Below, in pieces: positions 4,696 through 42,628 of a stretch of DNA of 64,000 nucleotides. The position numbers and the translations under genes are program-made. A model generated the notes under the pieces. The model did not search any database. It saw nothing but the letters and a program-made list of their open reading frames with translations, and was not told where the DNA came from. The stretch is from Schmidtea polychroa (lineage: Eukaryota). Each line of letters opens with the position of its first letter. Within the stretch, counting starts at the first letter, position 1. The stretch is taken from NCBI GenBank assembly GCA_044892525.1, contig CM097885.1, positions 26,290,001-26,354,000 of the forward strand. The letters are read 5' to 3'.

Positions 4696-14489
<9,794 letters not shown>

Positions 14490-15404: not shown

Positions 15405-15650
15405 TGAATTTTTGTCATTTTTTAGACTATAAATAATCGATTCAAGTTCTTTAACTCTTCCTTGTAATTGTTTCATTTTCTTCAATCTTATATCAGCAAC
15501 ATCGACAGCCTTCATATAAAAATGTCGATACTTTTCATTATCTACTATCAACTCTTTGATGTATTCTAATGGTTCTTCTTCTCTTCTTTTCATTCTCTTA
15601 TGTTTAACTTCATTCAATTCATTTCTCATTCTTTCTTTTAACTCATCCAT
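15354..15650 (-). CDS. Polinton 98-aa coiled-coil hypothetical protein (copy 1)
   Basis: Identical to 29162-29458. Confidence 0.5.
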   Translation of the reverse strand: MDELKERMRNELNEVKHKRMKRREEEPLEYIKELIVDNEKYRHFYMKAVDVADIRLKKMKQLQGRVKELESIIYSLKNDKNSNLDGAVGIDWHSGSNG

Positions 15651-15815
15651 TTTTATAAATATTTTTTTTATTGGATATATTTATTTTTGGTAGTTAAAAC
15701 GTTTTTGATCTTAAATTTCCAAGAGTTGCCGTTGACCAATCTCCTTAAAAATTTGTACAAGTACTAAATCGAGTATGCTGATCAATATTTCGTTAAAAAT
15801 AAATTTGAAAAAAAA

Positions 15816-15888
15816 TGACCGAAATGGGATTTGAACCCATTGGTATTGGCAATGCAGTCGAGTGCTATTACCACTAAGCTATTAGAGC
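15816..15888 (-). ncRNA. tRNA-Cys(GCA)-like Pol III unit 2 (copy in truncated element 1)
   Basis: Identical to 29624-29696. Confidence 0.65.
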
Positions 15889-16057
15889 TATACTCAATAT
15901 AAAATAAGTTGTTAATGTGTGACTATTTATTGATGAAATTAATAATTAATTATTCATTTTCTCGACAACTACCACTCAGATCCATCTGAAAATTTAAATA
16001 TATACTAAAATCAGTACGCTGAATCAGATTCCGTTGAAAAAAAATATCGAAAAAAAT

Positions 16058-16131
16058 TGACCAAAATCGAAAATTGAACCCGGTACTCCCGGTGATAAAA
16101 TTTAAGCCTATTCCCACTCCGCTATAATGGC
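16058..16131 (-). ncRNA. tRNA-like Pol III unit 3 (copy in truncated element 1)
   Basis: One SNP relative to 29866-29939. Confidence 0.5.
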
Positions 16132-16187
16132 TTACATAATATATTTAATTAATCCTATTTTGTGTGTGTAAATTTTAATATATAAAA

Positions 16188-17480: not shown

Positions 17481-17726
17481 TATAATCCCTGATATTTTAA
17501 CATTTTAAAATGTCTCTAAATAAATATTGGAGATGTGAAAGTTGTAATTGTCAAGTTACAAGACATCATAAAGCAAGTCATTTAAAAACTAAAAAACATA
17601 CAGGAGGTGATCTAATTCCACGAGCTGGAGGCGATTTGCAATCTTCAAAAACAACATCTTCAATATTAAAACCTTTTACTACAGAAAAATATCCAGGTGA
17701 AAGACATTTATTTAAACACAACTATA

Positions 17727-22715
<4,989 letters not shown>

Positions 22716-23579
22716 AGAAGTAGTGTGGTTATATACCCAACCAAAACAGCCCCCCAACAAAAACATGCCTCCAAATCACTTAAGCTATTAGAAAAACAAC
22801 CTAAAACTTATACTTTTATAGTATTTTAACCCTATATTTTGAAAACAACCACCCTTAATGACTCTAACTGTTGTAATCTTTAAAGCCTCAAACTCAAAAG
22901 CTTCAAAATAAAAAGAGAATAGAAAAGAAAATGGCATTATGAAAAAGTTAGAGGGCTATTTGATCTTTATCAGATTATTGATTTTAAATTATATAAATTA
23001 AAAAATAAATGAAAAATAGTAAAACTGCTCTGAGGGGACAGTGGTATTTTTTTTTTCACTGTCCCCTCAACAGTTTTTTTTGATCCGGATCATTTTTTTT
23101 ATTTATCAACCTCTTTCGTTTATCGAATCTCTTCCAATATACAAGCTGGCCAGACTCATACATCAGAATCAATCCTATAATAGCAGCACACCTTATTATT
23201 CGCTTCTCGCTCGAATACGATTTCATCGGCGTTTTAAGTGTGCTGCTCGAAAGTACAAATGAATTCGAAAGCGAATCCGAAAGAGGTCCGAAAACAACTG
23301 AGAAATAAATGTGCACATTACCGGAATCGATCCGGGGGTGTTCGAAAGACAGGTGGCGATAATTACCGGTTCGCCACCATCACCCGTTTCAATATTTTTT
23401 TTTTCATATTTATGTTTAAAAAATAAAATAATAAATAAAAAAATAAAATAAAATAAATAAAATAAAATATACAAGTACTTTATAAATATAAGATACCCAC
23501 ACTATTTTCAATATTATTTTCAAATTTTTAATATTATTTTATGTTGAAAAAAAACTAACCTCAGATGTGATTTGAACCA

Positions 23580-23876
23580 CTATCCATTTGAACCACTGTG
23601 CCAGTCTATTCCCACTGCGCCATCAAGGTTTGAATTTTTGTCATTTTTTAGACTATAAATAATCGATTCAAGTTCTTTAACTCTTCCTTGTAATTGTTTC
23701 ATTTTCTTCAATCTTATATCAGCAACATCGACAGCCTTCATATAAAAATGTCGATACTTTTCATTATCTACTATCAACTCTTTGATGTATTCTAATGGTT
23801 CTTCTTCTCTTCTTTTCATTCTCTTATGTTTAACTTCATTCAATTCATTTCTCATTCTTTCTTTTAACTCATCCAT
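23580..23876 (-). CDS. Polinton 98-aa coiled-coil hypothetical protein (copy 2)
   Basis: Identical to 29162-29458. Confidence 0.5.
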   Translation of the reverse strand: MDELKERMRNELNEVKHKRMKRREEEPLEYIKELIVDNEKYRHFYMKAVDVADIRLKKMKQLQGRVKELESIIYSLKNDKNSNLDGAVGIDWHSGSNG

Positions 23877-24413
23877 TTTTATAAATATTTTTTTTATTGG
23901 ATATATTTATTTTTGGTAGTTAAAACGTTTTTGATCTTAAATTTCCAAGAGTTGCCGTTGACCAATCTCCTTAAAAATTTGTACAAGTACTAAATCGAGT
24001 ATGCTGATCAATATTTCGTTAAAAATAAATTTGAAAAAAAATGACCGAAATGGGATTTGAACCCATTGGTATTGGCAATGCAGTCGAGTGCTATTACCAC
24101 TAAGCTATTAGAGCTATACTCAATATAAAATAAGTTGTTAATGTGTGACTATTTATTGATGAAATTAATAATTAATTATTCATTTTCTCGACAACTACCA
24201 CTCAGATCCATCTGAAAATTTAAATATATACTAAAATCAGTACGCTGAATCAGATTCCGTTGAAAAAAAATATCGAAAAAAATTGACCAAAATCGAAAAT
24301 TGAACCCGGTACTCCCGGTGATAAAATTGAAGCCTATTCCCACTCCGCTATAATGGCTTACATAATATATTTAATTAATCCTATTTTGTGTGTGTAAATT
24401 TTAATATATAAAA

Positions 24414-25706
24414 ATGAATAATATAAATCTTAAAATTCAAGAAAAGAATAAATTAAATCTTGATTATAATAAAGAATTTACTCATGAAATCAAGAAAAAT
24501 GATGTACTTAAAATATCCCCTACGTCAGGATCGATTGCAAACTTAAATCGTAGGGGTGATATAGTTTTTCAATCTCTTCAAACATCAAACCCTATAGATA
24601 TTTGTAATGCCAAATTATATTATAAAATCGAATTAGAAATTGAAGCAAACAAAGATATAACCCTAGAAAATAATTTCTTTCCAAATTTATTCTCCAACAT
24701 GAGATTAAAACTAGGATCATCAGAAATTGAAACTGTTTTGCATCCGGGAGTATATTCTACAATGTTAAATTTTATTTTGACTGGTTGTGATTATAAAAAC
24801 GAATATGGTGAATTAACAGGTTGGATTCCTGATGTTAATAAAGGGGATTTAGATAAAGATGGTTTAGATGTAAACCATGGTTACCATAAAAGAGCTGAAC
24901 TTTATAAATCTAAAAAATTTGAAGGTTATTTTGAATTAAAACACTTATTTGGATTCCTTCAAAACTATAATCGTATACTTCATAATGTTTTTATAGAATT
25001 CATCTGTAATAGAGTAGAAGGTGATAAAAGATTGTTCTATGGAGCTGTAGATACAAAAGCTAAATTAAAATTATCAACACTTGAATTACATATACCTGAA
25101 TGGACATTAAACCCACATTCTGAGATTAAACTCCTTGAAAGATTAAATTCCAACAAGTCTATAAATGTAAATTATTTAAATAGAATCTGTAGTGAATTTA
25201 GTATGACAGAGGGTTCAACATATTCAATAAAGGTAGCAAATTTAGCATACCGACCAAGATATATCTTAATTGGATTCAAAGAAGTAGATTCATCTTTCCA
25301 AAAAAATAACAACTTGTTTATTCAAAAGATTGGAGTTGATAATTTAAAAACAATCCAAATTCAATTAAATAGTTCTTATTATCCAATAAATAGAATGGAA
25401 TTTAATATTGAAAATAATGAAAACATATTCCCATATCTAAATTATATTGAAACATGTTATGATTTCAAAGTTGAACCGCAATTAAGTTTAGAAGATTTCA
25501 AAAATTTATATTCTATATTTTGTATAAATGTTTCAGACCAAGATGATCGCCTAGCCATAAATAATGTTGATGTTACACTTCATGTAACAAAGGATTCTAA
25601 TTTTAAAGCTAAAGTATATACATTAATATTAGAAGAAAAGAAAATAGAAATGAAATTATATGGTGGAAAGATTTCAATAATCGAAAATGTTAGGGGAGAT
25701 TCTTGA
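24414..25706 (+). CDS. Polinton major capsid protein, copy 2
   Basis: 430-aa identical protein; synonymous SNP at 24446. Confidence 0.85.
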   Translation: MNNINLKIQEKNKLNLDYNKEFTHEIKKNDVLKISPTSGSIANLNRRGDIVFQSLQTSNPIDICNAKLYYKIELEIEANKDITLENNFFPNLFSNMRLKLGSSEIETVLHPGVYSTMLNFILTGCDYKNEYGELTGWIPDVNKGDLDKDGLDVNHGYHKRAELYKSKKFEGYFELKHLFGFLQNYNRILHNVFIEFICNRVEGDKRLFYGAVDTKAKLKLSTLELHIPEWTLNPHSEIKLLERLNSNKSINVNYLNRICSEFSMTEGSTYSIKVANLAYRPRYILIGFKEVDSSFQKNNNLFIQKIGVDNLKTIQIQLNSSYYPINRMEFNIENNENIFPYLNYIETCYDFKVEPQLSLEDFKNLYSIFCINVSDQDDRLAINNVDVTLHVTKDSNFKAKVYTLILEEKKIEMKLYGGKISIIENVRGDS

Positions 25707-25952
25707 TATAATCCCTGATATTTTAACATTTTAAAATGTCTCTAAATAAATATTGGAGATGTGAAAGTTGTAATTGTCAAGTTACAAGACATCATAAAGC
25801 AAGTCATTTAAAAACTAAAAAACATACAGGAGGTGATCTAATTCCACGAGCTGGAGGCGATTTGCAATCTTCAAAAACAACATCTTCAATATTAAAACCT
25901 TTTACTACAGAAAAATATCCAGGTGAAAGACATTTATTTAAACACAACTATA

Positions 25953-28297: not shown

Positions 28298-28999
28298 AGA
28301 AGTAGTGTGGTTATATACCCAACCAAAACAGCCCCCCAACAAAAACATGCCTCCAAATCACTTAAGCTATTAGAAAAACAACCTAAAACTTATACTTTTA
28401 TAGTATTTTAACCCTATATTTTGAAAACAACCACCCTTAATGACTCTAACTGTTGTAATCTTTAAAGCCTCAAACTCAAAAGCTTCAAAATAAAAAGAGA
28501 ATAGAAAAGAAAATGGCATTATGAAAAAGTTAGAGGGCTATTTGATCTTTATCAGATTATTGATTTTAAATTATATAAATTAAAAAATAAATGAAAAATA
28601 GTAAAACTGCTCTGAGGGGACAGTGGTATTTTTTTTTTCACTGTCCCCTCAACAGTTTTTTTTGATCCGGATCATTTTTTTTATTTATCAACCTCTTTCG
28701 TTTATCGAATCTCTTCCAATATACAAGCTGGCCAGACTCATACATCAGAATCAATCCTATAATAGCAGCACACCTTATTATTCGCTTCTCGCTCGAATAC
28801 GATTTCATCGGCGTTTTAAGTGTGCTGCTCGAAAGTACAAATGAATTCGAAAGCGAATCCGAAAGAGGTCCGAAAACAACTGAGAAATAAATGTGCACAT
28901 TACCGGAATCGATCCGGGGGTGTTCGAAAGACAGGTGGCGATAATTACCGGTTCGCCACCATCACCCGTTTCAATATTTTTTTTTTCATATTTATGTTT

Positions 29000-29232
29000 A
29001 AAAAATAAAATAATAAATAAAAAAATAAAATAAAATAAATAAAATAAAATATACAAGTACTTTATAAATATAAGATACCCACACTATTTTCAATATTATT
29101 TTCAAATTTTTAATATTATTTTATGTTGAAAAAAAACTAACCTCAGATGTGATTTGAACCACTATCCATTTGAACCACTGTGCCAGTCTATTCCCACTGC
29201 GCCATCAAGGTTTGAATTTTTGTCATTTTTTA
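29000..29232 (+). repeat. Inner part of left terminal inverted repeat
   Basis: Reverse complement of 42426-42628 with several mismatches and a ~20-bp indel. Confidence 0.9.
29138..29212 (-). ncRNA. tRNA-like Pol III unit 1 (in left TIR)
   Basis: AACCTTGA-TGGCGCAGTGG(A box)-GAATAGACTGGCACAGTGGTTCAAATGGATAGT-GGTTCAAATC(B box)-ACATCTGAGGTTA, then G and a T-run; AACCTT/GAGGTT terminal stem. Confidence 0.55.
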
Positions 29233-29458
29233 GACTATAAATAATCGATTCAAGTTCTTTAACTCTTCCTTGTAATTGTTTCATTTTCTTCAATCTTATA
29301 TCAGCAACATCGACAGCCTTCATATAAAAATGTCGATACTTTTCATTATCTACTATCAACTCTTTGATGTATTCTAATGGTTCTTCTTCTCTTCTTTTCA
29401 TTCTCTTATGTTTAACTTCATTCAATTCATTTCTCATTCTTTCTTTTAACTCATCCAT
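29162..29458 (-). CDS. Polinton 98-aa coiled-coil hypothetical protein
   Basis: TATAAAAATG start context, charged helical sequence; 3' end runs into tRNA-like unit 1. Confidence 0.5.
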   Translation of the reverse strand: MDELKERMRNELNEVKHKRMKRREEEPLEYIKELIVDNEKYRHFYMKAVDVADIRLKKMKQLQGRVKELESIIYSLKNDKNSNLDGAVGIDWHSGSNG

Positions 29459-29623
29459 TTTTATAAATATTTTTTTTATTGGATATATTTATTTTTGGTA
29501 GTTAAAACGTTTTTGATCTTAAATTTCCAAGAGTTGCCGTTGACCAATCTCCTTAAAAATTTGTACAAGTACTAAATCGAGTATGCTGATCAATATTTCG
29601 TTAAAAATAAATTTGAAAAAAAA

Positions 29624-29696
29624 TGACCGAAATGGGATTTGAACCCATTGGTATTGGCAATGCAGTCGAGTGCTATTACCACTAAGCTATTAGAGC
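29624..29696 (-). ncRNA. tRNA-Cys(GCA)-like Pol III unit 2 (73 nt; not a canonical cloverleaf)
   Basis: GCTCTAA TA GCT TAGTGGTAAT AGC A CTCGA CTGCATT GCCAA TACCA ATGGG TTCAAAT CCCAT TTCGGTC A + T8. Perfect T-arm, D-arm and GCA at the anticodon position; acceptor and anticodon stems are mispaired. Confidence 0.65.
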
Positions 29697-29865
29697 TATA
29701 CTCAATATAAAATAAGTTGTTAATGTGTGACTATTTATTGATGAAATTAATAATTAATTATTCATTTTCTCGACAACTACCACTCAGATCCATCTGAAAA
29801 TTTAAATATATACTAAAATCAGTACGCTGAATCAGATTCCGTTGAAAAAAAATATCGAAAAAAAT

Positions 29866-29939
29866 TGACCAAAATCGAAAATTGAACCCGGTACTCCCGG
29901 TGATAAAATTGAAGCCTATTCCCACTCCGCTATAATGGC
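29866..29939 (-). ncRNA. tRNA-like Pol III unit 3
   Basis: A box TAGCGGAGTGG, B-box-like GGTTCAATT; ends GGTCA + A + T-run like unit 2; shares AGTGGGAATAG with unit 1. Confidence 0.5.
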
Positions 29940-29995
29940 TTACATAATATATTTAATTAATCCTATTTTGTGTGTGTAAATTTTAATATATAAAA

Positions 29996-31288
29996 ATGAA
30001 TAATATAAATCTTAAAATTCAAGAAAAAAATAAATTAAATCTTGATTATAATAAAGAATTTACTCATGAAATCAAGAAAAATGATGTACTTAAAATATCC
30101 CCTACGTCAGGATCGATTGCAAACTTAAATCGTAGGGGTGATATAGTTTTTCAATCTCTTCAAACATCAAACCCTATAGATATTTGTAATGCCAAATTAT
30201 ATTATAAAATCGAATTAGAAATTGAAGCAAACAAAGATATAACCCTAGAAAATAATTTCTTTCCAAATTTATTCTCCAACATGAGATTAAAACTAGGATC
30301 ATCAGAAATTGAAACTGTTTTGCATCCGGGAGTATATTCTACAATGTTAAATTTTATTTTGACTGGTTGTGATTATAAAAACGAATATGGTGAATTAACA
30401 GGTTGGATTCCTGATGTTAATAAAGGGGATTTAGATAAAGATGGTTTAGATGTAAACCATGGTTACCATAAAAGAGCTGAACTTTATAAATCTAAAAAAT
30501 TTGAAGGTTATTTTGAATTAAAACACTTATTTGGATTCCTTCAAAACTATAATCGTATACTTCATAATGTTTTTATAGAATTCATCTGTAATAGAGTAGA
30601 AGGTGATAAAAGATTGTTCTATGGAGCTGTAGATACAAAAGCTAAATTAAAATTATCAACACTTGAATTACATATACCTGAATGGACATTAAACCCACAT
30701 TCTGAGATTAAACTCCTTGAAAGATTAAATTCCAACAAGTCTATAAATGTAAATTATTTAAATAGAATCTGTAGTGAATTTAGTATGACAGAGGGTTCAA
30801 CATATTCAATAAAGGTAGCAAATTTAGCATACCGACCAAGATATATCTTAATTGGATTCAAAGAAGTAGATTCATCTTTCCAAAAAAATAACAACTTGTT
30901 TATTCAAAAGATTGGAGTTGATAATTTAAAAACAATCCAAATTCAATTAAATAGTTCTTATTATCCAATAAATAGAATGGAATTTAATATTGAAAATAAT
31001 GAAAACATATTCCCATATCTAAATTATATTGAAACATGTTATGATTTCAAAGTTGAACCGCAATTAAGTTTAGAAGATTTCAAAAATTTATATTCTATAT
31101 TTTGTATAAATGTTTCAGACCAAGATGATCGCCTAGCCATAAATAATGTTGATGTTACACTTCATGTAACAAAGGATTCTAATTTTAAAGCTAAAGTATA
31201 TACATTAATATTAGAAGAAAAGAAAATAGAAATGAAATTATATGGTGGAAAGATTTCAATAATCGAAAATGTTAGGGGAGATTCTTGA
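29996..31288 (+). CDS. Polinton major capsid protein (double jelly-roll, PY/hexon-like)
   Basis: 430 aa, beta-rich; motifs NNFFPNLFS, LKHLFGF, RPRYILIGF, YYP, LSLEDFKNLYSIFCINVS typical of Polinton MCP; genomic context. Confidence 0.85.
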   Translation: MNNINLKIQEKNKLNLDYNKEFTHEIKKNDVLKISPTSGSIANLNRRGDIVFQSLQTSNPIDICNAKLYYKIELEIEANKDITLENNFFPNLFSNMRLKLGSSEIETVLHPGVYSTMLNFILTGCDYKNEYGELTGWIPDVNKGDLDKDGLDVNHGYHKRAELYKSKKFEGYFELKHLFGFLQNYNRILHNVFIEFICNRVEGDKRLFYGAVDTKAKLKLSTLELHIPEWTLNPHSEIKLLERLNSNKSINVNYLNRICSEFSMTEGSTYSIKVANLAYRPRYILIGFKEVDSSFQKNNNLFIQKIGVDNLKTIQIQLNSSYYPINRMEFNIENNENIFPYLNYIETCYDFKVEPQLSLEDFKNLYSIFCINVSDQDDRLAINNVDVTLHVTKDSNFKAKVYTLILEEKKIEMKLYGGKISIIENVRGDS

Positions 31289-31317
31289 TATAATCCCTGA
31301 TATTTTAACATTTTAAA

Positions 31318-32727
31318 ATGTCTCTAAATAAATATTGGAGATGTGAAAGTTGTAATTGTCAAGTTACAAGACATCATAAAGCAAGTCATTTAAAAACTAA
31401 AAAACATACAGGAGGTGATCTAATTCCACGAGCTGGAGGCGATTTGCAATCTTCAAAAACAACATCTTCAATATTAAAACCTTTTACTACAGAAAAATAT
31501 CCAGGTGAAAGACATTTATTTAAACACAACTATACTGGACCAGGAACACGTCTAGATATTAGATTAGATGAAAATAATAATCCCAAACAAGGAGAAGAAC
31601 CAATAAATAGAATTGATCAAGCAGCTTTAAAACATGACATTGCATACAATTCAACAAATCTTAGAGATAGACATGTTGCAGATGTGAATTTAATACATGA
31701 TTTAAATAGTATCCAAAATCCATCAACCCAAGAAAAGATTCAAAGAGCTCTAGTTAAATTAGCAATGAAAGGTAAGATTTTCATAGGCTTAGGACACAGT
31801 CCGATCACCATGGGTGCAAGACTTCCTAGGAAAGCAAAAGATGTTGCTTATAAAAAGATTATCGAACAAGCAGAGATTGAAAGATCCCTCGAGAGTACAG
31901 CCAAGACTAGTTTACAAACCCCAACAGAATCAGAAATAAAATATGCAAAGGAATTACACCATGAATTTAGAAAAAATAAAAAATATTTAAAAGTTCAAGT
32001 ACATGAAAAAGATCAAACATTGTCTGCAGATTTAGTCTTTATGCCCAAATCATCAGACCCTGAAAAATATAAAATAATTTTAACTGTAATAGATTTATAT
32101 ACAAGATTTGCTTTTGCAAGATGTTTAGAAAATAAAACAGGATATTCTATTACAGAAGCATTTGAAAATATATTTGAAGAAAATCAAAGAATTCCAAAAT
32201 ATTTATGGTGTGATAAAGGAACAGAATTTTATAACAAAGTTTTTACAAAGTTTTTAAATGAAAATGATATTAAATTATATTCAACAGAAAACGAAGGAAA
32301 AGCAGTCGTAGTTGAAAGATTAAATAGAACATTAAAAAATAAAATGTGGAAATATTTTACTACTATTGGAAAACAAAAATGGAACAATGAATTGTTACAA
32401 AAGATTGTAAATGAATATAATAATGATGTACATAGTTCTATAAAATTAACACCTTTAAATGCTTCCATGAAGCCTGAAACCATTAAAGTGGTAAATATTG
32501 AAAATGATGTTATTGAAAAACCAAAGTTTAAAATTGGTGACCGAGTAAGAATATTTAAATATAAAAATAAATTTGAAAAAGGATTCACAGCAAAATGGAC
32601 AAATGAAATTTTTATTATAAATAAAATACATTATACAAATCCAATAACATATACCATCTTTGATTTAAATAATGAAAAAATATTAGGTAGATTTTATAAT
32701 AATGAACTACAGAAAACAGATTTTTAA
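31318..32727 (+). CDS. Retroviral-like (rve) integrase with N-terminal C2H2 Zn finger and parvovirus-type phospholipase A2 domain
   Basis: Zn finger CESC..HLKTKKH. PLA2 NYTGPGT...PINRIDQAALKHDIAY...RHVAD. Integrase ADLVFM, VIDLYTRF, WCDKGTEF, VERLNRTLK (DDE). C-terminal KFKIGDRVRI. Confidence 0.93.
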   Translation: MSLNKYWRCESCNCQVTRHHKASHLKTKKHTGGDLIPRAGGDLQSSKTTSSILKPFTTEKYPGERHLFKHNYTGPGTRLDIRLDENNNPKQGEEPINRIDQAALKHDIAYNSTNLRDRHVADVNLIHDLNSIQNPSTQEKIQRALVKLAMKGKIFIGLGHSPITMGARLPRKAKDVAYKKIIEQAEIERSLESTAKTSLQTPTESEIKYAKELHHEFRKNKKYLKVQVHEKDQTLSADLVFMPKSSDPEKYKIILTVIDLYTRFAFARCLENKTGYSITEAFENIFEENQRIPKYLWCDKGTEFYNKVFTKFLNENDIKLYSTENEGKAVVVERLNRTLKNKMWKYFTTIGKQKWNNELLQKIVNEYNNDVHSSIKLTPLNASMKPETIKVVNIENDVIEKPKFKIGDRVRIFKYKNKFEKGFTAKWTNEIFIINKIHYTNPITYTIFDLNNEKILGRFYNNELQKTDF

Positions 32728-33528
32728 GTCGACAAGCCCTAAAAAAACTTTTCCATATTTCAGCTTCTTCTCTATCCAAATAAATATAATTATATTTTTT
32801 TTCCAATGATTATCAACAAACATATCAAACATATTCTTATCAGGTTCAACATTTGAAAATAAATCATTATAAATCATATTCTTATCACGGCGATCTAATT
32901 TAAAAAATATAAAACAATTGGAATTATTTCTTATTGAATTTTTATCTAAAGCATAATATGTTTGAGATATATAAATAACATTACAATTATTATGTCGACC
33001 TCGTGTAAAGTAACTCTTTTGAATCTCTTGATTTTTCATATTAACAACATCATCAAATATAACTAGATTCTTTTTATCTTTAGGAAGTAAATCACAATGT
33101 AAAACATCTTCAGGTTTATTAGAGAATAAAACTTGAATTGCCTCCTGCCCTTCTTCACAAATATAATCATTTTTATTACTAATATCTGATTCTAAAATCT
33201 TTTCCTTATACCAATCAACCATATCACAAGGTTGAAAAACTTCTTCAGGACACCTATGTTGATTTTTAAAAATATCAATTATTGCTTTTTTAGTTAATTT
33301 ATTTTCAAATCCACATTTCAAAAGTTGTAATTCTGGTTGATTTATGGTTGTAGAATAAAAGATTAAATTATTATAATCTAAAAAATCATCTTCAAGTAAC
33401 ATTCTCAAAACAAGTACATTCTTTCCACATCCAGAAGAACCAACAATTAATAATCTAAAATTATCAGGAAATACTTTATTATTAAATTTACTCTTATGTC
33501 TATTTAAAATTGGTTTCCAAATATCCAT
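32707..33528 (-). CDS. A32/FtsK-like genome-packaging ATPase
   Basis: Walker A LLIVGSSGCGKN, Walker B LVIFDD, FTRGRHNN, YISQ, IRNN; likely start ATG 33528 (MDIWKP). Confidence 0.92.
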   Translation of the reverse strand: MDIWKPILNRHKSKFNNKVFPDNFRLLIVGSSGCGKNVLVLRMLLEDDFLDYNNLIFYSTTINQPELQLLKCGFENKLTKKAIIDIFKNQHRCPEEVFQPCDMVDWYKEKILESDISNKNDYICEEGQEAIQVLFSNKPEDVLHCDLLPKDKKNLVIFDDVVNMKNQEIQKSYFTRGRHNNCNVIYISQTYYALDKNSIRNNSNCFIFFKLDRRDKNMIYNDLFSNVEPDKNMFDMFVDNHWKKNIIIFIWIEKKLKYGKVFLGLVDLKICFL

Positions 33529-33543
33529 TTTGTTTATTATAAA

Positions 33544-34122
33544 ATGACAACTGAAGAATCTTTGCAAGAATTAATAAATTCAAATAAAAATAAATCAGTA
33601 GTAATTGATGGTAAAAAATATTCTATTGGAAAACATGTAAAAGAACAAGTTAGAGCGAAGCTCCACGAAGCTAAAGAAGGTGGCATTCTTCCATTAGCTG
33701 CTTTAATACCTGCAATCATTGCTGGTTTATCAGGTGCTGCTGGAATAGCTGGAGGAATTGCAACTACAGTTCAAAAAGCTAAAGAATCTCAAAAGACAGA
33801 CCTAGAAAAAGAAAAACTACAAACTGAAATCGATTCAATGAAGAAGGTAGGGCAAGCTAAAGGGGGAGTGTCCGTTGGAAAGGGTCTCTATCTTAATCCA
33901 TATGAGGGGAGTCGGCAAAAGTCTCAGGGCAAAGGTCTCTATCTTGATCCTTATAAAGGTAGAGGTTTAAATGATTTTTTAAAAAATCAAATTTCTACAT
34001 CTGAATCTTTATCTTCAAAAGATAAAGAAGATTTAAAAAAAATATGTAAATCTTTAAAGAATGGATGCCTTTGTAAAACTAAAAATGGTAAAGGATTATA
34101 CTTGAAGCCCTTCGAACTATGA
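33544..34122 (+). CDS. Virion core/membrane-active protein, adenovirus pX-like
   Basis: EGGILPLAALIPAIIAGLSGAAGIAGG resembles the hydrophobic C-terminal part of adenovirus pX; four G(K/R)GL motifs. Confidence 0.65.
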   Translation: MTTEESLQELINSNKNKSVVIDGKKYSIGKHVKEQVRAKLHEAKEGGILPLAALIPAIIAGLSGAAGIAGGIATTVQKAKESQKTDLEKEKLQTEIDSMKKVGQAKGGVSVGKGLYLNPYEGSRQKSQGKGLYLDPYKGRGLNDFLKNQISTSESLSSKDKEDLKKICKSLKNGCLCKTKNGKGLYLKPFEL

Positions 34123-34144
34123 TACCATTTTTGATACCATTAAA

Positions 34145-35026
34145 ATGGTATATGAAGAAAGATTAGCACTTTTAAAAAAATTACAATCAGAACAAGATAA
34201 ATATAATAAAAAAGATACAACTCAACATGCTGAATCTATAATATTAAATGAGGTAATAACACAACAACAGGGGCCAACAATTAAAGCTATAAAAGAGTTG
34301 GAAGATTTCAATGAGCAAGCAAAATTTAAAGAGTTACAAGATAAAAAACAAAAAATAAAAGAACTAGAGTGGCAGGATAAAGAAAAAGAATCCAGTGAAA
34401 ACCATCCTGAAAGAAATCAAAGAAAACGCAGAAGAATTTCTAATGTGGAAGAAGAAGAAATGTTTTTAAAAACAAAAGCTCTTAAAGTTGATCCTAAAAT
34501 TAGAGATGATTTACCTCCTTCAATTAGACCCACATTTAATACTAATACTGAAGGATATCAAATAATAACAATTAATAAACAAAACTTTACTTTATATTCA
34601 AATTCAGAAAATAAATCACGTATTCATTCACAAAATGTTTATAATAATGAATATTTAGACTTTGAATTTACAGATGATTTTTATAGATTACTTTGTGGAT
34701 ATTCTTCAGATGATGTTGAAGAAATTAAAAAATATTTAAATTTAATAAGATTAATAAGAGCTAGTTCTAAAGCAAAATATATTCAAGATTTAAAGAATTA
34801 TTTAAATAAAAATGAAAAGGGTTATGTTGTTACAGAGGGAGAGGGATTAATTAGTGAAGGTGGTAAACCAAATCCCATCAATCTTTTTATTGAATTAAGA
34901 AAACTATTAGCTGCAAGGAAAGCAGGACATAATAATTTAGATTCTGATATTTTAAAGATTTCTAAAGATTTGTTAAAACAAGGAATAATTTCAAAAGATA
35001 AATTTAATAAGTATACGAAGTTATAA
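34145..35026 (+). CDS. Polinton PZ-like conserved protein
   Basis: C-terminal GEGL...NPINLFIELRKLLAARKAGHNNL...DLLKQGII matches the recurrent Polinton helical C-terminal motif; NLS-like RKRRR. Confidence 0.7.
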   Translation: MVYEERLALLKKLQSEQDKYNKKDTTQHAESIILNEVITQQQGPTIKAIKELEDFNEQAKFKELQDKKQKIKELEWQDKEKESSENHPERNQRKRRRISNVEEEEMFLKTKALKVDPKIRDDLPPSIRPTFNTNTEGYQIITINKQNFTLYSNSENKSRIHSQNVYNNEYLDFEFTDDFYRLLCGYSSDDVEEIKKYLNLIRLIRASSKAKYIQDLKNYLNKNEKGYVVTEGEGLISEGGKPNPINLFIELRKLLAARKAGHNNLDSDILKISKDLLKQGIISKDKFNKYTKL

Positions 35027-35048
35027 ATACGAAGTTTTAAAATACATA

Positions 35049-35513
35049 ATGACTCCTTCAATATTAGATTTTTTAAAAACATTTGGAATAAATGCAAAAA
35101 CAAATTTTGATTTAAAAGATTATGCAAATTATTTAAATTTAAAAATTAAAATATTAATGAATGATGAATTATCAAGTCTGGAGAGTCCCCTGAATATAAT
35201 AATCAATTATCAAAATTCAAATGAAAAAGGATCTCATTGGGTTTGTATATATAAGAAATCTATCTACTTTGATTCTTTTGGGATTAAACCTACTAAAGAA
35301 GTTGAAGATTATCTCTTGAGGGGTTCTCCGATTGATTTCCCAAATGGTTATACTTTTAACTCTTTACAAGTTCAACCTTTGAATACTAAAATATGTGGTA
35401 TTTTAAGTTTATATGTTTTGTATAGATTGAATAAGGGAGAGGGAAAGGGGCATACGCAGGATTTTGAATCTATAATTCAAGAAATTTATAATGATCTAGA
35501 ATCTCTACTATAA
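35049..35513 (+). CDS. Adenain-like cysteine maturation protease
   Basis: GSHWV (His), YFDSFG (Asp), QVQ...ICG (Gln/Cys). Confidence 0.93.
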   Translation: MTPSILDFLKTFGINAKTNFDLKDYANYLNLKIKILMNDELSSLESPLNIIINYQNSNEKGSHWVCIYKKSIYFDSFGIKPTKEVEDYLLRGSPIDFPNGYTFNSLQVQPLNTKICGILSLYVLYRLNKGEGKGHTQDFESIIQEIYNDLESLL

Positions 35514-35561
35514 GGATTTTTACTATAAGGATTTTTACTATATGAATTTACTACTAAAGAA

Positions 35562-36326
35562 ATGGAGCTTCACAACCCTCCGGAAGATAATTTAAAAAAA
35601 ATGGTAAACATAATGTCAGATAAATATTCAAGAACTTTATCTATAAATTCAAAAGAATCAGACTTTACTATAAACTTTCAAGATTCAATTAAATTAGATC
35701 AAAATTTAAATTATGAATTGGGGCTATTATGGTTTTGTGCTTATAATACTATTTTTAATATAACTAAAGATAATAATAAATTTACTATTCAAACTCGTGA
35801 TGGGCATAAACCAGAAATTATAACAATAGAACCTGGGGCATATGAGATAAAAGATTTAAATGATATACTTTCTAAAAAAACAAATGAAGGTATTAAAATT
35901 AAAATGGATATACCAACTTCAAAATGTGTAATGACTTTGAAGAATATAAAAATTAGTTTTTTAGATAATTGTTTCTTTCACACAGTTTTAGGATTTAAAC
36001 CTATGGATATAACAATAAAAGAAGATAAAATAATAACATCAGAACATATTATAAAAATAATAAATACAAACACAATAAATATTCATTGCGATTGTATAAC
36101 AGGTTCTTATAATAATGGTAAACAAACAAATGTTTTATATTCCTTTCCCTCAAACACAGTTCCTATGGGATATAAAATAGTTGAAAGAATGAATCCTCCA
36201 AATTATTTACCTTTATGTAGAAAATATATAATGGATATTAATTTTAAAATTCTTAATCAAGAAGGAGAATTGATTGATTTTAATGGAGAAGAGATTTCAA
36301 TGTATTTACATTTGAAACAGGTTTGA
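35562..36326 (+). CDS. Minor capsid protein (penton, PX-like)
   Basis: YELGL, YNTIFNIT..NN, IEPGAYEI, LGF, INIHCDCITGSY.NG, LYSF, YLPL, IDFNGEEI...LHLK. Confidence 0.85.
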   Translation: MELHNPPEDNLKKMVNIMSDKYSRTLSINSKESDFTINFQDSIKLDQNLNYELGLLWFCAYNTIFNITKDNNKFTIQTRDGHKPEIITIEPGAYEIKDLNDILSKKTNEGIKIKMDIPTSKCVMTLKNIKISFLDNCFFHTVLGFKPMDITIKEDKIITSEHIIKIINTNTINIHCDCITGSYNNGKQTNVLYSFPSNTVPMGYKIVERMNPPNYLPLCRKYIMDINFKILNQEGELIDFNGEEISMYLHLKQV

Positions 36327-36350
36327 AGATTCATTTTAAATTATTAATAA

Positions 36351-37361
36351 ATGAGTTCTTATATTCCATGTAATAGAGGTGGTGGAACAATAAAAACAGG
36401 GTTTAATACAGAAGAAATATTAACTTTAACAGAAAATAAATATATTAATGAAAGAGGTGATTCAATGAAGGGTGATTTAATTTTAAATGGACACAAGATA
36501 AAAGAATTATCTTTTCCAACTGATGAAGCTGATGCAGTTAATAAGAAATATGTAGATGGTGTTAAAAAATATACTGATTTAACAACAACAAGAATTGAAA
36601 GTTCATTAACAACAAAAATTGATTCAATGGAATCAAAGCTTAATAATATCGAACAACGATTTAATGATAAATTTGACAAGTTACAAAGTCTGTTAACTGA
36701 ACAAGTTGTAAAGTTAAATACTGCTATATTAAATTCTAAAGATAAACAAATTATGAATACTAAATTTAATACAATATATAAAATAATAAATGAGATGATT
36801 ACATCATTTAATAAAAGAATTTCAAATTTAGAGTCTCATGGAACACACATTAACACCACACATAGTATTAGAAAAAGAGCTGCTGAATTAGAACAGAATA
36901 AAACATTATTACCCCATACATATAAACATTTTATAGAACCAAGTTTAATAACAACAAACAGTAAAGAATGGGGTGTTTTTATGGTTGTAAAAATTATTGA
37001 TCCTTATTTCTTTTTGTTTGATGATGATAATGAAAGAATGAAATGGTTTGTGAAATGTGATTATAATAGTAAGCTTGAAAAGGGTGATGTTATAATGACT
37101 AGTTATGATTTACCACACGGAGATTGGTATGTTAATACTCATTCACATGGACTACATAAAGTTAAAAGTAAGAATATTCATTTTTCTAGTTCACTTGTAC
37201 AATATATAGATTTAATATTTTATGAAAAAAAGGTTGATGTTGATGAAGTTCGTAAAGCATTGATGGAATTGTATAAAGATATCCTCTCAACAAGAGTTTC
37301 TTTTGATATCCGAGTATTGGTGCCAGATGGTGCTCAGAAGAATAAAGTCTTATTTTTTTAA
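36351..37361 (+). CDS. Putative fibre/spike-like protein
   Basis: GDSMKGDLILNGHKIKEL..PT...DAVNKKYVD fibre-type motif, long coiled coil, RKR site, C-terminal globular domain. Confidence 0.6.
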   Translation: MSSYIPCNRGGGTIKTGFNTEEILTLTENKYINERGDSMKGDLILNGHKIKELSFPTDEADAVNKKYVDGVKKYTDLTTTRIESSLTTKIDSMESKLNNIEQRFNDKFDKLQSLLTEQVVKLNTAILNSKDKQIMNTKFNTIYKIINEMITSFNKRISNLESHGTHINTTHSIRKRAAELEQNKTLLPHTYKHFIEPSLITTNSKEWGVFMVVKIIDPYFFLFDDDNERMKWFVKCDYNSKLEKGDVIMTSYDLPHGDWYVNTHSHGLHKVKSKNIHFSSSLVQYIDLIFYEKKVDVDEVRKALMELYKDILSTRVSFDIRVLVPDGAQKNKVLFF

Positions 37362-37369
37362 TTATTAAA

Positions 37370-37966
37370 ATGGAAGAAGTAAGAGAAGAAAAAATTTACC
37401 CAGAATTGAGATCATCAGGATATTATTCTTCCAAGGCCTCGGCTCCCACAGAACTTGAAATTATGAGAGTAAAAGAATTTAAATCAGAAACCTTACATTT
37501 ACAAGATTTATTAAAGCATTATAAAAAAATTAAAAATAGATGGAATAAAGGGAATACAGTTTTAAAAGTTATAGGTTATTCTTTAGGATTTGCATCTGCA
37601 ATATTAACAGTTATTTTACCCATAACTTTACCAGTTGTTACTCTTGCACCTGTAATACTTGGAAGTATTTCTGTGGCTGATGGTTTCTTAACTGAAATAG
37701 TTTCATTATCTTATACTTCTAAAAAGAAAAGTTTATATAGAGAAGTTTGTTTATCAATAGAATTAGGAATCTCTAAATTATTTTTATTTCAATTAAAAGC
37801 TTTGGAAGATGGAATCCTGACAGACGAAGAAATAATGAAATCAAATCAAATAATACAAGATATAAAGAATGAGGTTATAAGATTAAAAAGGGAGGGCATG
37901 GTGGCTAATGTTATAAGTAATAAAAAAACATCTCGAGAAAAATGGTTAAAGAATTCTTACTTATAA
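37370..37966 (+). CDS. Two-helix membrane protein of Polinton-type elements
   Basis: N-terminal IYPEL, hydrophobic hairpin (aa ~64-112), KALEDGILTDEE C-terminal motif. Confidence 0.65.
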   Translation: MEEVREEKIYPELRSSGYYSSKASAPTELEIMRVKEFKSETLHLQDLLKHYKKIKNRWNKGNTVLKVIGYSLGFASAILTVILPITLPVVTLAPVILGSISVADGFLTEIVSLSYTSKKKSLYREVCLSIELGISKLFLFQLKALEDGILTDEEIMKSNQIIQDIKNEVIRLKREGMVANVISNKKTSREKWLKNSYL

Positions 37967-38207
37967 AATGGGTGTATTTTTAAAAAAGTAGATCAGGTTG
38001 CTATAGTTGCTTAAATTAATTGTCGACATTTTATTATTAAAAAATTAAATATCGTTGGTTTCAGTTATGGTTGAAAGCCAACCTATGAATCATTAATTTA
38101 TGATCTTTAAATTCTTTATCACTTAGACCTTTTATATATTCAGGATCAGTATTAAAATATTTAAGTTCTAAACATATAGGATTAAAAACTTGAGAATATA
38201 AAGGTTT

Positions 38208-41200
38208 CTAGATTTCTCTCTCGGGATAAATAATTTCAACATTATAAATATCAAGATCAGTAATCTTTGTATCATATAACTTATTCAACTTTTCTAGATT
38301 TTTTATTATAGGGATTAAATTATTTCCAATAGGTAGAGTTGTCTTTAAATCACTTAGTATGAATCTCTTATCATCATAATTTGATAATGATACTTTTTGA
38401 GATTCTATCAAGTGAATATCATGGTTTTCACTTTTAAGTTGATGTAGTTCATCAATTTTATCTTTATGATTTGGATTGAATGTATCTATATAATCTTGAT
38501 GAGAAAGATTCTTTGCCACCACTCTCTGTATTCCTTTACATCTGTTATCCTTTACAGGTTTTTCTTCTTTAGGAAATATAGGATATCTATGTGTAATGGT
38601 TTCTTCTGTTTCTGGAGTTTTAAATATAAATGATCTAGTTATAAATTCAGGGTTTCTAAATGTTTCGTATGAATATTGTTTAGCACGAATAAATATTCCA
38701 TTTTCTATAGGAGTAAAAGGTTTTTCATCTTTAAACGAAAATAGTTCTCCAGATGAATTTATTAAATTTGAAAGTATAGGATTTTCTTTCATATCTTTTT
38801 GTAAATCATGAGTTCTTATTGTTAAAAACATTGAATCTGTATCCATTGCATGCATTGATATATTTGCTCCGTATATAGGTTGTAAGATGTTATAATATGT
38901 TTCATACATTTGTAATTTTGAAAGTTCTAAAATTGTAAACCCTATAAATATTGGTTTGTTATATGTTTTCTCATAATTTTTTAATTCTACTGCAGTAAGA
39001 TTTTCAGAAAATACTTGTGCGTTTTTAAATGTAGGCTTTCCTAGCATGCGATTATAACGCTTAATATCTTTGGTAGTATTTGTTAGGAGTTCAATATGAG
39101 TATATTTATCAACATTCTCCATTGTTTTCCCAAAGACTGAATTGTTTAAAATTTTATAATTATTATCTTTAAAAAGATTACCTTCTCTTTTTGCAATGTT
39201 TCGGCACCTAATGTTCTCCTCGATAAAAGCTTTCATGAATGGAGCTTGTTTAAATCTTATGACACTATGAACTTTTTTTAATATCATTCCTCGTGAAAGA
39301 TAAAATTGGAGGAGTCTATAGTGACAAAGATAAAACCTTCGATCTGTTTGATCACAAAGAAGTTTCATTGTTGGAGGTTTATCTTGTGAGATTTGCCATT
39401 CAGAAAGTTCGTTGATATCAATCTTTCTTCTTATGGGAGCTAAAGGAAAATATCTTGTTCCTGATTTTATATCATCTGGATAGTCGAGGTCGCATTCTAT
39501 AAAGTAACCTATTGGAGAATCTTTCGATGTTGAAAGTATTTCTTTCATAAGGTCATCTGTTGGGTTCTCTATTTCAGTGAAATCACCCATTGGTAAAAAT
39601 TGAGTCATAATTCCTGAATATAAAGCTGTTGCATCTATATAAAGTATAAATATAGGATTTTTCATTGTTTCTAATAATTCTTTTAATTCCTCATTGTTAA
39701 TTTTCATATATGGGTCATCAGGGTGTTTAGATAGTCTTCGGCTAGTAGTTATTGCATTTCTAGCTTTTATTTCTCTATTCCCCATTACTGAAGAGACTCC
39801 TCCTCTAATGTTTGTTTTAATTTGGTTAAACATATCGAGGTTAGTTAAAAGATCTATAATTTTATCACCTTCTTCTATATTTGAAGTCCAAATGGTATAT
39901 AACATAGTATCCCAAGCTAAAGAGGGTGCAGTTATATAATTATAAGGTTTAAGAACAAAAGATTTTGTAAATTCTTCAAAGCAATCTGCTAGAATATAAA
40001 CATCCAAGGATAAATATATACTTGTATATTCTCCTAAAGTTTTACACTTGAATAATTCCCACATTTTATTTGCTCGAGAATATTCTTGATTTGAAATATG
40101 ATTTTTTTGAAGTTGTGAATAGAAATCTTCTTGGCTAGGAAGACTTGTTTCATTATATCTTTCAAACGAGTCAACATAGTCATAAGGATATATTCCTTTT
40201 GCTAAACATGTAGGATATTCTTCTAGAGGAATATTATTTTTTTCCAAGAATTCTCGAGTGATTTTAAAATTTTCTGGTTTCATTGTTTTTGCTACTGCAT
40301 CTAAAGACATTTGGAGAAAGTTTAACGAGTCTATAAATTTTAATTTTCCATATTCAATTGATTTATATTTTTCCTTTGTTAAGCCGATAACTTTGAAAGA
40401 GTTTTTAGCATTTGCTGCGAGGTGTTTAATAAATAGATGTATGTCATATCCAAAAAGATTATGAAATATAACAGGTATAAATTTAGGAGTATGGCAATTA
40501 AGATTGCAATTTTTATGAGCTGCTCCTCGATAATTATTTTCCTTTTTTAAATGATCATGATCTATAACTTTTTCATCAGGAAGAATATTCTGTCTACACA
40601 TCCAACAGTTGGAAGTATTTTCATATTCTTGTTGTTGTTGATTAGAAATATTTTGAGGATACTTTGTTTTTAATATTTTAAATATTTCATGTTCTAGATC
40701 ATTTATATTTTTAGTAAAATGATTCAAGACTTCTTCAGGGGTACCTCCTAGAATTGAATATTCTCTAGATTCTATGAGTTCAGGATAATTACTTTTAAAT
40801 AATAATTTATAAGCAGATGGTAATTGTTTAGTTTTTTTAACACTATTAGGTTTATTTCTTTTTCTTAGAAAGGCTTTCATCCTCTCTGGTTTCATCTTCT
40901 CTCCTGAGGAGTTCCATAAATCCATGAGTTTATTTTTTTCTATTATTTTTAAATATTGATAAACCAAATCTTGTTTATGGTTTATAGATTCAAAGTCACC
41001 ATAAAGAACTCCAACTGTTTGTAGTAAATTTGAAAAGTTTTTAAAATACATCTTGGGATTATTAGGCATTTTAATTAAAGCTGGATCATCTTTTTCACAA
41101 AATCTTGTATGTTTAATCATAGAGTTTTTAGTTGTTGAATAATGAAGACATCTTTTACATGTTCCTCCTCCACTAGTTGGATTCTCTGGAGATGTAAAAG

Positions 41201-42380
41201 CTTGAAAGTTTTTTATTAAAACATAATGTTGATTATTTTCTTGTTCCAAGATTAAAAGATATATCTCGTTGTCCTGTGCTCCGTTATCCTTGGTTCCACT
41301 ATCTGAAATATAAATTGGAATAATTTCTTTCCCTATAACATGTTCATAAATATTAAGTTTAAGATTATTTAATTTTTCAAATTCTGGAATGTCTTCTAGT
41401 TTCATTGGGTGTTTGAATCCTTTGGGAAATATTAATTCATTTTCATATTGTTTGTATTTTGAAACTCTTTGGGGATTTGTTGCTTGAGGATGTAAATGTG
41501 CAAGTATTGACCAGATGAAACATTTGTTATCATTATTCTGTACATTTATAACATTTTTAGATTTAAAGGGTGTAGGAATATAAGATTTAGGATTGGGTGG
41601 TAATCCTCTCCAATAATCAATCACTAAAGTTTGGAAAGAGTTGAATACTAAGTTTGAATCTCCTAATTCATTTTCTACTTCCTCTTGTTTTGCTTCTGCT
41701 GCTTTAATTATTTCTTTGATGGTTTTATCAAATCCTTTAATTGAAAATAAATATTTAAAAGGTATTCCAATTTCAACATCTAAGGGTGTTGTCTTTTCTT
41801 CTGCTCCTCGCCAGTATTTTGCTTTGATTATAATTTTATATTTTATAACATTATACCTTGTCGGTTTATAATTTTTTAAAGCTTCAGTGAAAGAATTTTT
41901 AATATTTTTTTTATTTTTATTTATATATTCTCCAGGAGTTGCAGGCCCATTAATTTTTAATTGAAATTCATCTATATGATTAAAATTATCCCAGTTATAT
42001 TTTTCTCTTTCAACATGATCAGGCTCTCCTTCTGAATGACATTCCTCATCGTCAGAATTTTGTTTTTTATTTTTACATTCTTTTATATGTTCTAAATAAT
42101 AGAAATTTAGTTTTGTTGAAAAGTTACAATGAGGACATGTAAATATTTCTCTATTTTTCCCGATACAATTTTCAAAATGTTTATTATATCCAGAATGTAG
42201 AAATCTTCCTTTACATTTAAGACAAAGTTTTGAATTTGTATCATTAAGATTGTTTTCTTTTAATAAATGAGCTTTCGATTTTAAGTGAGAAATTAATCCA
42301 GTTTTATTTTTAAAAACTTTATTGCAAATATTACAATTCATTTTTAGAAAAAAATTTTTTATTGGATACCCTGTTTTCAT
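38208..42380 (-). CDS. polB: Protein-primed family B DNA polymerase with N-terminal Zn fingers, OTU-like protease domain and endonuclease VII-like insert
   Basis: Exonuclease motifs YGDFES, FHNLFGYD, YLSLDV; KGIYPY; polymerase motifs YIDATALYS, KILNNSVFGK, MDTDS; EndoVII CWMC..DHDH..YRGAAHKNCN; OTU-like NDNKCF...HYVLI. Confidence 0.96.
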   Translation of the reverse strand: MKTGYPIKNFFLKMNCNICNKVFKNKTGLISHLKSKAHLLKENNLNDTNSKLCLKCKGRFLHSGYNKHFENCIGKNREIFTCPHCNFSTKLNFYYLEHIKECKNKKQNSDDEECHSEGEPDHVEREKYNWDNFNHIDEFQLKINGPATPGEYINKNKKNIKNSFTEALKNYKPTRYNVIKYKIIIKAKYWRGAEEKTTPLDVEIGIPFKYLFSIKGFDKTIKEIIKAAEAKQEEVENELGDSNLVFNSFQTLVIDYWRGLPPNPKSYIPTPFKSKNVINVQNNDNKCFIWSILAHLHPQATNPQRVSKYKQYENELIFPKGFKHPMKLEDIPEFEKLNNLKLNIYEHVIGKEIIPIYISDSGTKDNGAQDNEIYLLILEQENNQHYVLIKNFQAFTSPENPTSGGGTCKRCLHYSTTKNSMIKHTRFCEKDDPALIKMPNNPKMYFKNFSNLLQTVGVLYGDFESINHKQDLVYQYLKIIEKNKLMDLWNSSGEKMKPERMKAFLRKRNKPNSVKKTKQLPSAYKLLFKSNYPELIESREYSILGGTPEEVLNHFTKNINDLEHEIFKILKTKYPQNISNQQQQEYENTSNCWMCRQNILPDEKVIDHDHLKKENNYRGAAHKNCNLNCHTPKFIPVIFHNLFGYDIHLFIKHLAANAKNSFKVIGLTKEKYKSIEYGKLKFIDSLNFLQMSLDAVAKTMKPENFKITREFLEKNNIPLEEYPTCLAKGIYPYDYVDSFERYNETSLPSQEDFYSQLQKNHISNQEYSRANKMWELFKCKTLGEYTSIYLSLDVYILADCFEEFTKSFVLKPYNYITAPSLAWDTMLYTIWTSNIEEGDKIIDLLTNLDMFNQIKTNIRGGVSSVMGNREIKARNAITTSRRLSKHPDDPYMKINNEELKELLETMKNPIFILYIDATALYSGIMTQFLPMGDFTEIENPTDDLMKEILSTSKDSPIGYFIECDLDYPDDIKSGTRYFPLAPIRRKIDINELSEWQISQDKPPTMKLLCDQTDRRFYLCHYRLLQFYLSRGMILKKVHSVIRFKQAPFMKAFIEENIRCRNIAKREGNLFKDNNYKILNNSVFGKTMENVDKYTHIELLTNTTKDIKRYNRMLGKPTFKNAQVFSENLTAVELKNYEKTYNKPIFIGFTILELSKLQMYETYYNILQPIYGANISMHAMDTDSMFLTIRTHDLQKDMKENPILSNLINSSGELFSFKDEKPFTPIENGIFIRAKQYSYETFRNPEFITRSFIFKTPETEETITHRYPIFPKEEKPVKDNRCKGIQRVVAKNLSHQDYIDTFNPNHKDKIDELHQLKSENHDIHLIESQKVSLSNYDDKRFILSDLKTTLPIGNNLIPIIKNLEKLNKLYDTKITDLDIYNVEIIYPEREI

Positions 42381-42425
42381 TTTATTTTTTAAGATTTATA
42401 TTATTCATTTTTTATAATAAAAATT

Positions 42426-42628
42426 TAAAAAATGACAAAAAATCCAAACCTTGATGGCGCAGTGGGCTAGACTGACACAGTGGTTCAAAATGATAGCGGT
42501 TCAAATCACATCTGAGGTTAGTTTTTTTTTCAACATAAAATAATATTGAAAATAGTGTGGGTATCTTATATTTATAAAGTACTTGTATATTTTATTTTAT
42601 TTTATTTTATTTTTTTATATTTTTTTAT
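42426..42628 (-). repeat. Residual right terminal inverted repeat
   Basis: Reverse complement of 29000-29232; joins satellite at AGCTTCAAACAT (42629). Confidence 0.9.
42447..42520 (+). ncRNA. tRNA-like Pol III unit (right-TIR copy of unit 1)
   Basis: A box TGGCGCAGTGG and B box GGTTCAAATC retained, followed by G + T9. Confidence 0.55.

Follow-up and report, generated by a model that had tools for sequence, protein, structure and literature searches.

The window, by which we mean the whole 64-kb stretch of Schmidtea polychroa DNA analysed here, contains a Polinton/Maverick copy in which genes for pPolB, an rve integrase, a DJR capsid protein and an A32 ATPase are all recognised by Pfam, in agreement with what the sequence-only reading had taken the carrier element to be. 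Terminal inverted repeats (TIRs), AG...CT termini and 6-bp target-site duplications (TSDs) complete the Polinton/Maverick anatomy, the TSDs being read from other copies and the right end of the window copy being cut at 42628; the copy is embedded in a satellite-like array. Perfect 6-bp TSDs were found in 8 out of 11 other Polinton copies, with termini AGTAGT/ACTACT. The inverted repeats measure 950-990 bp in the full copies L063, L079 and L080, and in the window copy 29005-29232 pairs with 42426-42628. The element and its features are as follows.

28301..42628, plus strand: Polinton/Maverick copy (Pfam matches to MCP, rve, A32 and pPolB; AGTAGT terminus)
28301..29232, plus strand: left TIR, made of terminal head, hairpin cassette and unit 1
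29129..29212, minus strand: unit 1 (A box 29194-29204, fused second A/B-like box 29168-29185, B box 29151-29160, T8 terminator)
29162..29458, minus strand: 98-aa ORF entering unit 1 (some subfamilies only; no Pfam match)
29616..29696, minus strand: unit 2, tRNA-Cys-like, with a T8 terminator (Rfam tRNA 32.4 bits)
29858..29939, minus strand: unit 3, with A box, imperfect B box and T7, back-to-back with the MCP start
29996..31288, plus strand: major capsid protein, MCP (PF21738, E 6e-26)
31318..32727, plus strand: integrase with PLA2-like domain (PF00665, PF08398)
32707..33528, minus strand: packaging ATPase, A32 (PF04665)
38208..42380, minus strand: protein-primed-type DNA polymerase B, pPolB (PF03175)
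42447..42530, plus strand: unit 4, mirror of unit 1 in the right TIR, back-to-back with the pPolB start

In addition, a 154-aa ORF without a Pfam match (35049-35513) carries HW and DSFG motifs, which we take to resemble those of an adenain-type protease. The left end of the element (satellite flank, TIR, units and MCP) is duplicated twice within the satellite array, in 99.9% identical stretches of 4 kb each (13693-17726 and 21919-25952), reflecting either tandem amplification or an assembly effect. The array also holds a 591-aa hAT transposase with a BED finger in three tandem copies (49511-51286, 54498-56273 and 59837-61612; Pfam scan on the first copy).

tRNA-like units and the conservation of their boxes

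All four units match the A box TRGCNNAGTGG and carry, at tRNA spacing, a B box that reads GGTTCAAATC in units 1, 2 and 4 and GGTTCAATT in unit 3, where it is imperfect and lacks C61; each unit is followed by a run of T7-T9. Unit 1 is a mosaic in which the A box is followed by a second A box fused to a B-like box and then by the B box proper. A strict pattern of A box, B box and T-run, composed after the units had been seen and following the textbook consensus, gave four matches in 28301-42628 and none in 300 dinucleotide shuffles of the element; across the window it matched ten sites, four in the element and six in the two left-end duplications. The four sites, their boxes and their T-runs are those described by the sequence-only reading; unit 4, however, lies on the plus strand of the right TIR and mirrors unit 1 (69 of 75 aligned columns identical), so that there are three unit types, not four, and all units point outward.

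Of what marks a functional tRNA gene, the units hold the boxes and the T-run, and none forms a cloverleaf with paired acceptor, anticodon and T stems. The Rfam tRNA model scores unit 2 at just above its cut-off of 29 bits, with acceptor and anticodon stems broken and the T-arm intact, and does not match units 1, 3 or 4 at E up to 10; ARAGORN reports no tRNA gene in the 64-kb window and, at a lowered threshold, only noise, in line with the low or pseudogene-like scores that had been predicted. Among the three host isotypes compared, the local alignment score of unit 2 is 43 against tRNA-Cys, 26 against tRNA-Lys and 14 against tRNA-Arg, and in global alignment Cys (54) and Lys (53) are not separated. 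The tRNA-Cys features, broken stems and perfect T-arm ascribed to unit 2 from sequence are thus supported, and the refolding proposed for it is its minimum-free-energy structure. The host genes for tRNA-Cys (992 pattern matches), tRNA-Lys, tRNA-Arg and 7SL lie in long tandem arrays (C1:269.25 Mb, C4:76.66 Mb, C140, C333 and C2:31.93 Mb in assembly G000).

Investigating the variation of unit 1, we compared 64 units from 50 of 53 distinct loci picked by their MCP (60 taken, seven duplicates dropped). Polymorphic columns amount to 1 of 21 within the boxes vs 17 of 31 outside (Fisher p 2e-4), and among G/C columns to 0 of 11 in the boxes vs 29 of 66 G/C third codon positions of MCP (p 0.005), p values that are optimistic, the copies being related and recombining and their columns non-independent, and that stem from unit anchors tolerating 1-2 box mismatches, a bias toward box conservation. 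The sole polymorphic box column is the consensus-tolerated R of TRGC, and a terminator of T7 or longer is present in 63 of 64 copies. The same pattern, boxes kept and the remainder drifting, recurs in 36 unit 1 copies sampled by position, after exclusion of two units in which the B box was absent. Conservation comparable to that of the boxes is also seen in the AT-rich stretch following unit 1, where 49 of 64 are identical over 30 nt. Variation within units 2 and 3 is no lower than in the spacer and too limited for testing box selection; the earlier proposal of boxes and terminators being kept while the cloverleaf decays is supported for unit 1. In 11 of 30 copies, unit 2 has another sequence in place of the acceptor 5' strand and an unchanged A box. 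As to position, 39 of 64 copies have an A box at a distance of 40-80 nt from the MCP start, and in 23 of 64 the unit closest to MCP is 300-340 nt away; for type-A pPolB, an A box stands 60-100 nt from the start in 13 of 15 copies.

The units retain A box, B box and long terminator together, as a transcribed gene requires, which raises the possibility that the 75-80-nt RNAs of units 1-4 are themselves effectors, acting as VA-like or tRNA-mimic decoys against antiviral or RNAi defences. Unit 2 beats its shuffles in folding (z -2.85), unit 1 is doubled in tandem at 14 of the 50 loci that carry it, and in MHV68 the tRNA-like part by itself rescues pathogenesis (PMC8223928). Nevertheless, we consider such decoys unlikely, given that unit 1 outside its boxes varies more than MCP third positions (non-major fraction 0.13-0.23 vs 0.04), that its end duplexes range from -10.9 to +0.6 kcal/mol with terminal-stem covariation rejected (permutation p 0.26), and that no Rfam VA, EBER or similar model matched at E up to 10. 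Units 1, 3 and 4 moreover fold like shuffles (z -0.5, 0.1 and 0.7, respectively), which speaks against the sequence-only proposal of 75-nt VA-RNA analogues. Since boxes and terminator of unit 1 are kept without a conserved fold, selection seems to target promoter and terminator rather than RNA shape, and the other option raised at the time, a TFIIIC-binding DNA element, would fit units 1-4 better than a VA-like RNA.

A fifth box pair and a structured block in the TIR

Around 160 nt past the unit 1 terminator, the left TIR contains a further box pair at tRNA spacing, which heads a block of hairpins on the same strand; both had been missed by the sequence-only reading.

28596..28972, minus strand: candidate structured RNA of ~370 nt with box pair, hairpins and then T-runs (fold z -8.37, 0/100 shuffles as good)
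28948..28958, minus strand: fifth A box, exact in 48/50 distinct copies
28905..28915, minus strand: fifth B box of the A54 type, 43 nt after the A-box start (core GATCGATYC in 46/50 copies)
28873..28876, minus strand: internal T4, in 50/50 copies; possible weak terminator giving an RNA of ~100 nt
28764..28830, minus strand: 12-bp stem with one compensatory pair (A-U 16, G-U 8, G-C 4 of 28 lettered rows; z -3.5)
28700..28763, minus strand: pre-miRNA-shaped, G-U-rich hairpin (z -4.2; 6 one-sided pair-keeping changes)
28603..28659, minus strand: 21-bp terminal hairpin with A-tract loop, then T-runs (z -9.6; A-U/G-C swap in 8/30 copies)

Thirty block copies were aligned, drawn from a set of 50 distinct copies and the window copy; 99.4% of cells are paired, and shared variants keep the pair in 9 of 9 cases vs 1 of 12 singletons (p 3e-5), pair-keeping that is inflated by the block structure having been derived from the same alignment. 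Eight of the nine shared pair-keeping variants involve a G-U pair, workable on the minus strand only, and thus favour a minus-strand RNA. Compensatory changes on both sides occur at 2 of 106 pairs, a number reached in 440 of 500 shuffles. The plus strand of the block also folds well (z -5.8), and inverted repeats can be homogenised at the DNA level, a caveat for the block pairing as a whole. All 40 sampled copies possess the last hairpin, and the block is found attached to no fewer than three terminal heads that show no alignment to one another. In a sliding 200-nt fold scan (step 400) the block was cut by the windows and not singled out (z -1.4).

The minus strand of the block is free of T5 until its end, and the plus strand has four T8-T10 runs. 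The head consists of one A box and a B box in a 7-nt loop, with no cloverleaf, and the A box, lying inside a stem, may be kept for the fold. A local alignment to the 5' end of host 7SL, performed for the block and units 1-3, led us to reject an SRP (7SL) Alu-domain origin (p 0.15-1.0), and a search of all Rfam families at E up to 10 gave no match besides the weak tRNA hit of unit 2. Both arms of the 28760-28830 stem contain a word resembling the miR-15/16 seed (Rfam mir-15 15.6 bits, E 2), which is probably due to chance.

The internal T4 is found in every copy, and only T3/T4 runs follow the tRNA-Cys gene of the host, which counts against a long Pol III transcript; Pol III starting from the fifth pair would then stop at T4 after ~100 nt, and the hairpins might function differently, as RNA made by Pol II from a TATA-like site close by or as a single-stranded DNA structure in replication or packaging. 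The 101-nt head that such a short RNA would comprise folds with a closing stem (z only -1.4), the B box is of the non-canonical A54 type, and the block lies within the TIR and folds on both strands, all of which agrees with a function apart from Pol III. We regard this explanation as doubtful though worth serious attention, because pair-keeping through minus-strand G-U favours RNA, because the pair stands at tRNA spacing, at the 5' end and on the right strand and was found in none of 5,000 block shuffles (with a pattern widened after the pair was seen), because T-stem-like pairing around the fifth B box is lost in most copies though the box is retained, and because units 1-4 as well as the host tRNA-Lys and tRNA-Arg genes use T6-T9 terminators. 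Overall, the block at 28596-28972 is a likelier small-RNA candidate than units 1-4.

Furthermore, we inspected contigs of four sequencing runs presumed to be RNA. The hairpin block and unit 1 are covered by contigs of X1, X2 and X3, which come from two studies, and X10 gave none; the runs may hold DNA. Summed contig depth peaks at 28601-28900, although contig depth from runs that may hold DNA cannot rank the parts. A contig of X3 links unit 1 with the beginning of MCP, and 29176-29489 is spanned by a contig of X1; both are equally compatible with DNA or with longer transcripts.

Distribution and origin of the cassette

Genome-wide, the unit 1 pattern has 3,004 exact matches and the fifth box pair 2,804. 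Position-based sampling of 40 loci on contig C1 gave unit 1 in 34, unit 2 in 12 and unit 3 in 9, the latter two being restricted to a subset of copies. A host tRNA-derived SINE inserted into the Polinton could account for a tRNA-like head with a body and for the A-tracts within the block, but is very improbable as the source of either the units or the block. The best 30 matches to unit 2 all lie in Polinton left-end DNA, and of 40 box pairs sampled by position, 38 are next to Polinton coding sequence and the remaining two still carry unit 1; within these samples, no solo copy outside the carrier was seen. The genome-wide counts of unit 1 and box pair are alike as well, and the units end in T-runs, not, as far as seen, in a 3' A-tail or simple repeat with TSD, and have flanks common to the copies. 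The earlier view that the units belong to the Polinton and are no dispersed SINE therefore stands.

The Polinton copies are 90-100% identical to each other, and this would also be expected if the units were neutral relics of captured host tRNA genes that a very recent expansion had spread and inter-copy recombination had homogenised. Units 2 and 3, in which no box-specific signal is seen, are dispensable to many copies, and a related full-length element in the same genome (L214-L215, 71-89% DNA identity) carries neither the units nor the block. Two observations nevertheless make neutral relics quite unlikely: the unit 1 variants shared between copies fall outside the boxes, save at the consensus-tolerated position, and the cassette persists through exchange of the termini and of the pPolB gene. 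The ends of L214 (288-519), L215 (13829-14060 of the pair) and L216 (279-520) are self-palindromic AGTAGT...ACTACT heads of 230-240 bp without units or hairpin block.

A type-B subfamily (L061-L076 and L004-L024) shares the left cassette and the virion genes and has a different pPolB (~72% DNA identity) and a 370-bp TIR; the cassette is present at the left end of type-B copies and absent from their right end, and the subfamily is a recombinant with the cassette at one end only. Together with the related element that is devoid of it, these left-only copies indicate that the cassette is lineage-specific and not needed by every Polinton of the clade.

Searching more widely, we found 41 MCP homologues. 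Two divergent MCPs used as queries against the own genome recovered no family other than the one studied here, and the viral_contigs set yielded no loci by protein and none by two box patterns. In 37 metagenome loci (19-52% MCP identity, 94 kb) the box scan gave three stray matches and no unit, and Rfam found no tRNA in 20 of the 37; the examined loci show no element end, so that the absence of units there says little. In L141 and L142, MCP is preceded by a gap of just ~50-75 nt. An intergenic gap of a distant Polinton (L163:5784-5798) holds 15 nt identical to the fused A2/B2 core of unit 1, preceded by an SRP-like word; the match is not significant (E 0.07-0.13). An intergenic hairpin of a Polinton with a 50% identical MCP (L142:5436-5515, minus strand) scores 48.6 bits with Rfam mir-754 (E 9e-7), below the cut-off of 84. 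The mir-754 family is a multi-member planarian one (PMC3854530) and, judging by the hairpin, may be Polinton-linked; a search for mir-754 in the own genome gave an empty return that carries no weight.

Relation to known Pol III systems and proposed function

Virus-borne type-2 A and B boxes with a T-run are shared with adenovirus VA RNA I/II and the EBV EBERs. VA RNA is ~160 nt long, and units 1-4 are half its length. In contrast to VA RNA and EBERs, for which no Rfam match was obtained at E up to 10, units 1-4 are without a conserved fold and lie in or beside TIRs; for VA RNA, the internal type-2 promoter is present as sequence boxes and the family-model match with the terminal, apical and central fold is absent. 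The fifth B box shares with the EBERs the A54 that their B-box consensus allows, having W at position 54 (PMC12498455, Table 1).

By analogy, the cassette would work most like the TMERs of MHV68, without qualifying as one of them. TMERs likewise have type-2 boxes at the 5' end, hairpins of pre-miRNA size downstream and units clustered at the genome end, and weak terminators extending transcripts have been described for TMER-like modules (PMC8223928, PMC12498455). In the Polinton, pre-miRNA-like hairpins are predicted downstream of the boxes on the same strand, and a cloverleaf head with a triplicated A box is missing: TMERs have triple overlapping A boxes, whereas the fifth unit has a single A box and no cloverleaf. 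Moreover, the clearly tRNA-derived Polinton units have strong terminators and no attached hairpins, and there is no sequence match to TMERs. The BLV Pol III miRNA cluster (PMC12498455) is again carried by an integrating element with hairpins under type-2 promoters, but consists of separate short hairpin transcripts with the B box past the terminator, unlike the one box pair before several hairpins found here.

Polintons are relatives of adenoviruses (PMC8502044), and tRNA and other ncRNA calls in polinton-like viruses (PLVs) have already been published (PMC12220804). The tRNA genes of PLVs, virophages and MELD viruses resemble our units in being tRNA-derived and probably host-captured (PMC12220804, PMC8502044). 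They are, however, Rfam or ARAGORN tRNAs read as codon supply, while the Polinton units fail ARAGORN and have broken stems. Likenesses also extend to chromatin. tDNA and ETC barriers work via TFIIIC binding independent of RNA shape and occur in tandem copies; a TFIIIC-based function of the Polinton units, themselves found in tandem, would by analogy be equally independent of RNA shape, with the difference that the units ride a mobile element and stand back-to-back with capsid and polymerase genes.

What we observe, namely the anatomy of the element, the copy numbers, the conservation of the unit 1 boxes, the minus-strand pair-keeping in the block and the retention of the block across exchanged termini, is best explained, at a probability that we put at about one half, by a two-part cassette of Pol III type at the element ends, in which units 1-4 are docking sites and the fifth pair heads a functional hairpin RNA. 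Host TFIIIC would bind the boxes, and units 1-4 would attract TFIIIC, TFIIIB and Pol III, with their effect at the DNA level beside the capsid and polymerase promoters; the outward-facing units might hold these promoters and the TIR in an open state or protect them against heterochromatin. At the fifth box pair, Pol III would start near 28970, and the transcript would end at the internal T4 (~100 nt) or read through to the T-runs at ~28600 (~370 nt), so that the hairpins could give rise to miRNA-sized RNAs or dsRNA decoys, as in gammaherpesvirus TMERs.

A bolder version, which we offer tentatively as possible and no further, holds that an expanding Polinton encodes a TMER-like polycistronic Pol III hairpin RNA in its TIRs next to promoter-only tRNA relics, that this RNA blunts host silencing via miRNAs or dsRNA decoys, and that gain of the cassette enabled thousands of copies while cassette-less relatives stayed rare.

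To our knowledge, Polintons are known almost solely from their proteins, and a full-text literature search, with most subscription journals outside its scope, found no title or abstract opening on Pol III units in Polintons. A Pol III cassette in the TIR provides a concrete non-coding mechanism to test, with a parallel to VA RNAs and TMERs in relatives of adenoviruses. With ~3,000 copies each, the two extra box pairs could draw on the TFIIIC and Pol III of the host and spread barrier elements genome-wide. If the bolder version is true, Polintons would join adenoviruses, herpesviruses and retroviruses as encoders of Pol III small RNAs.
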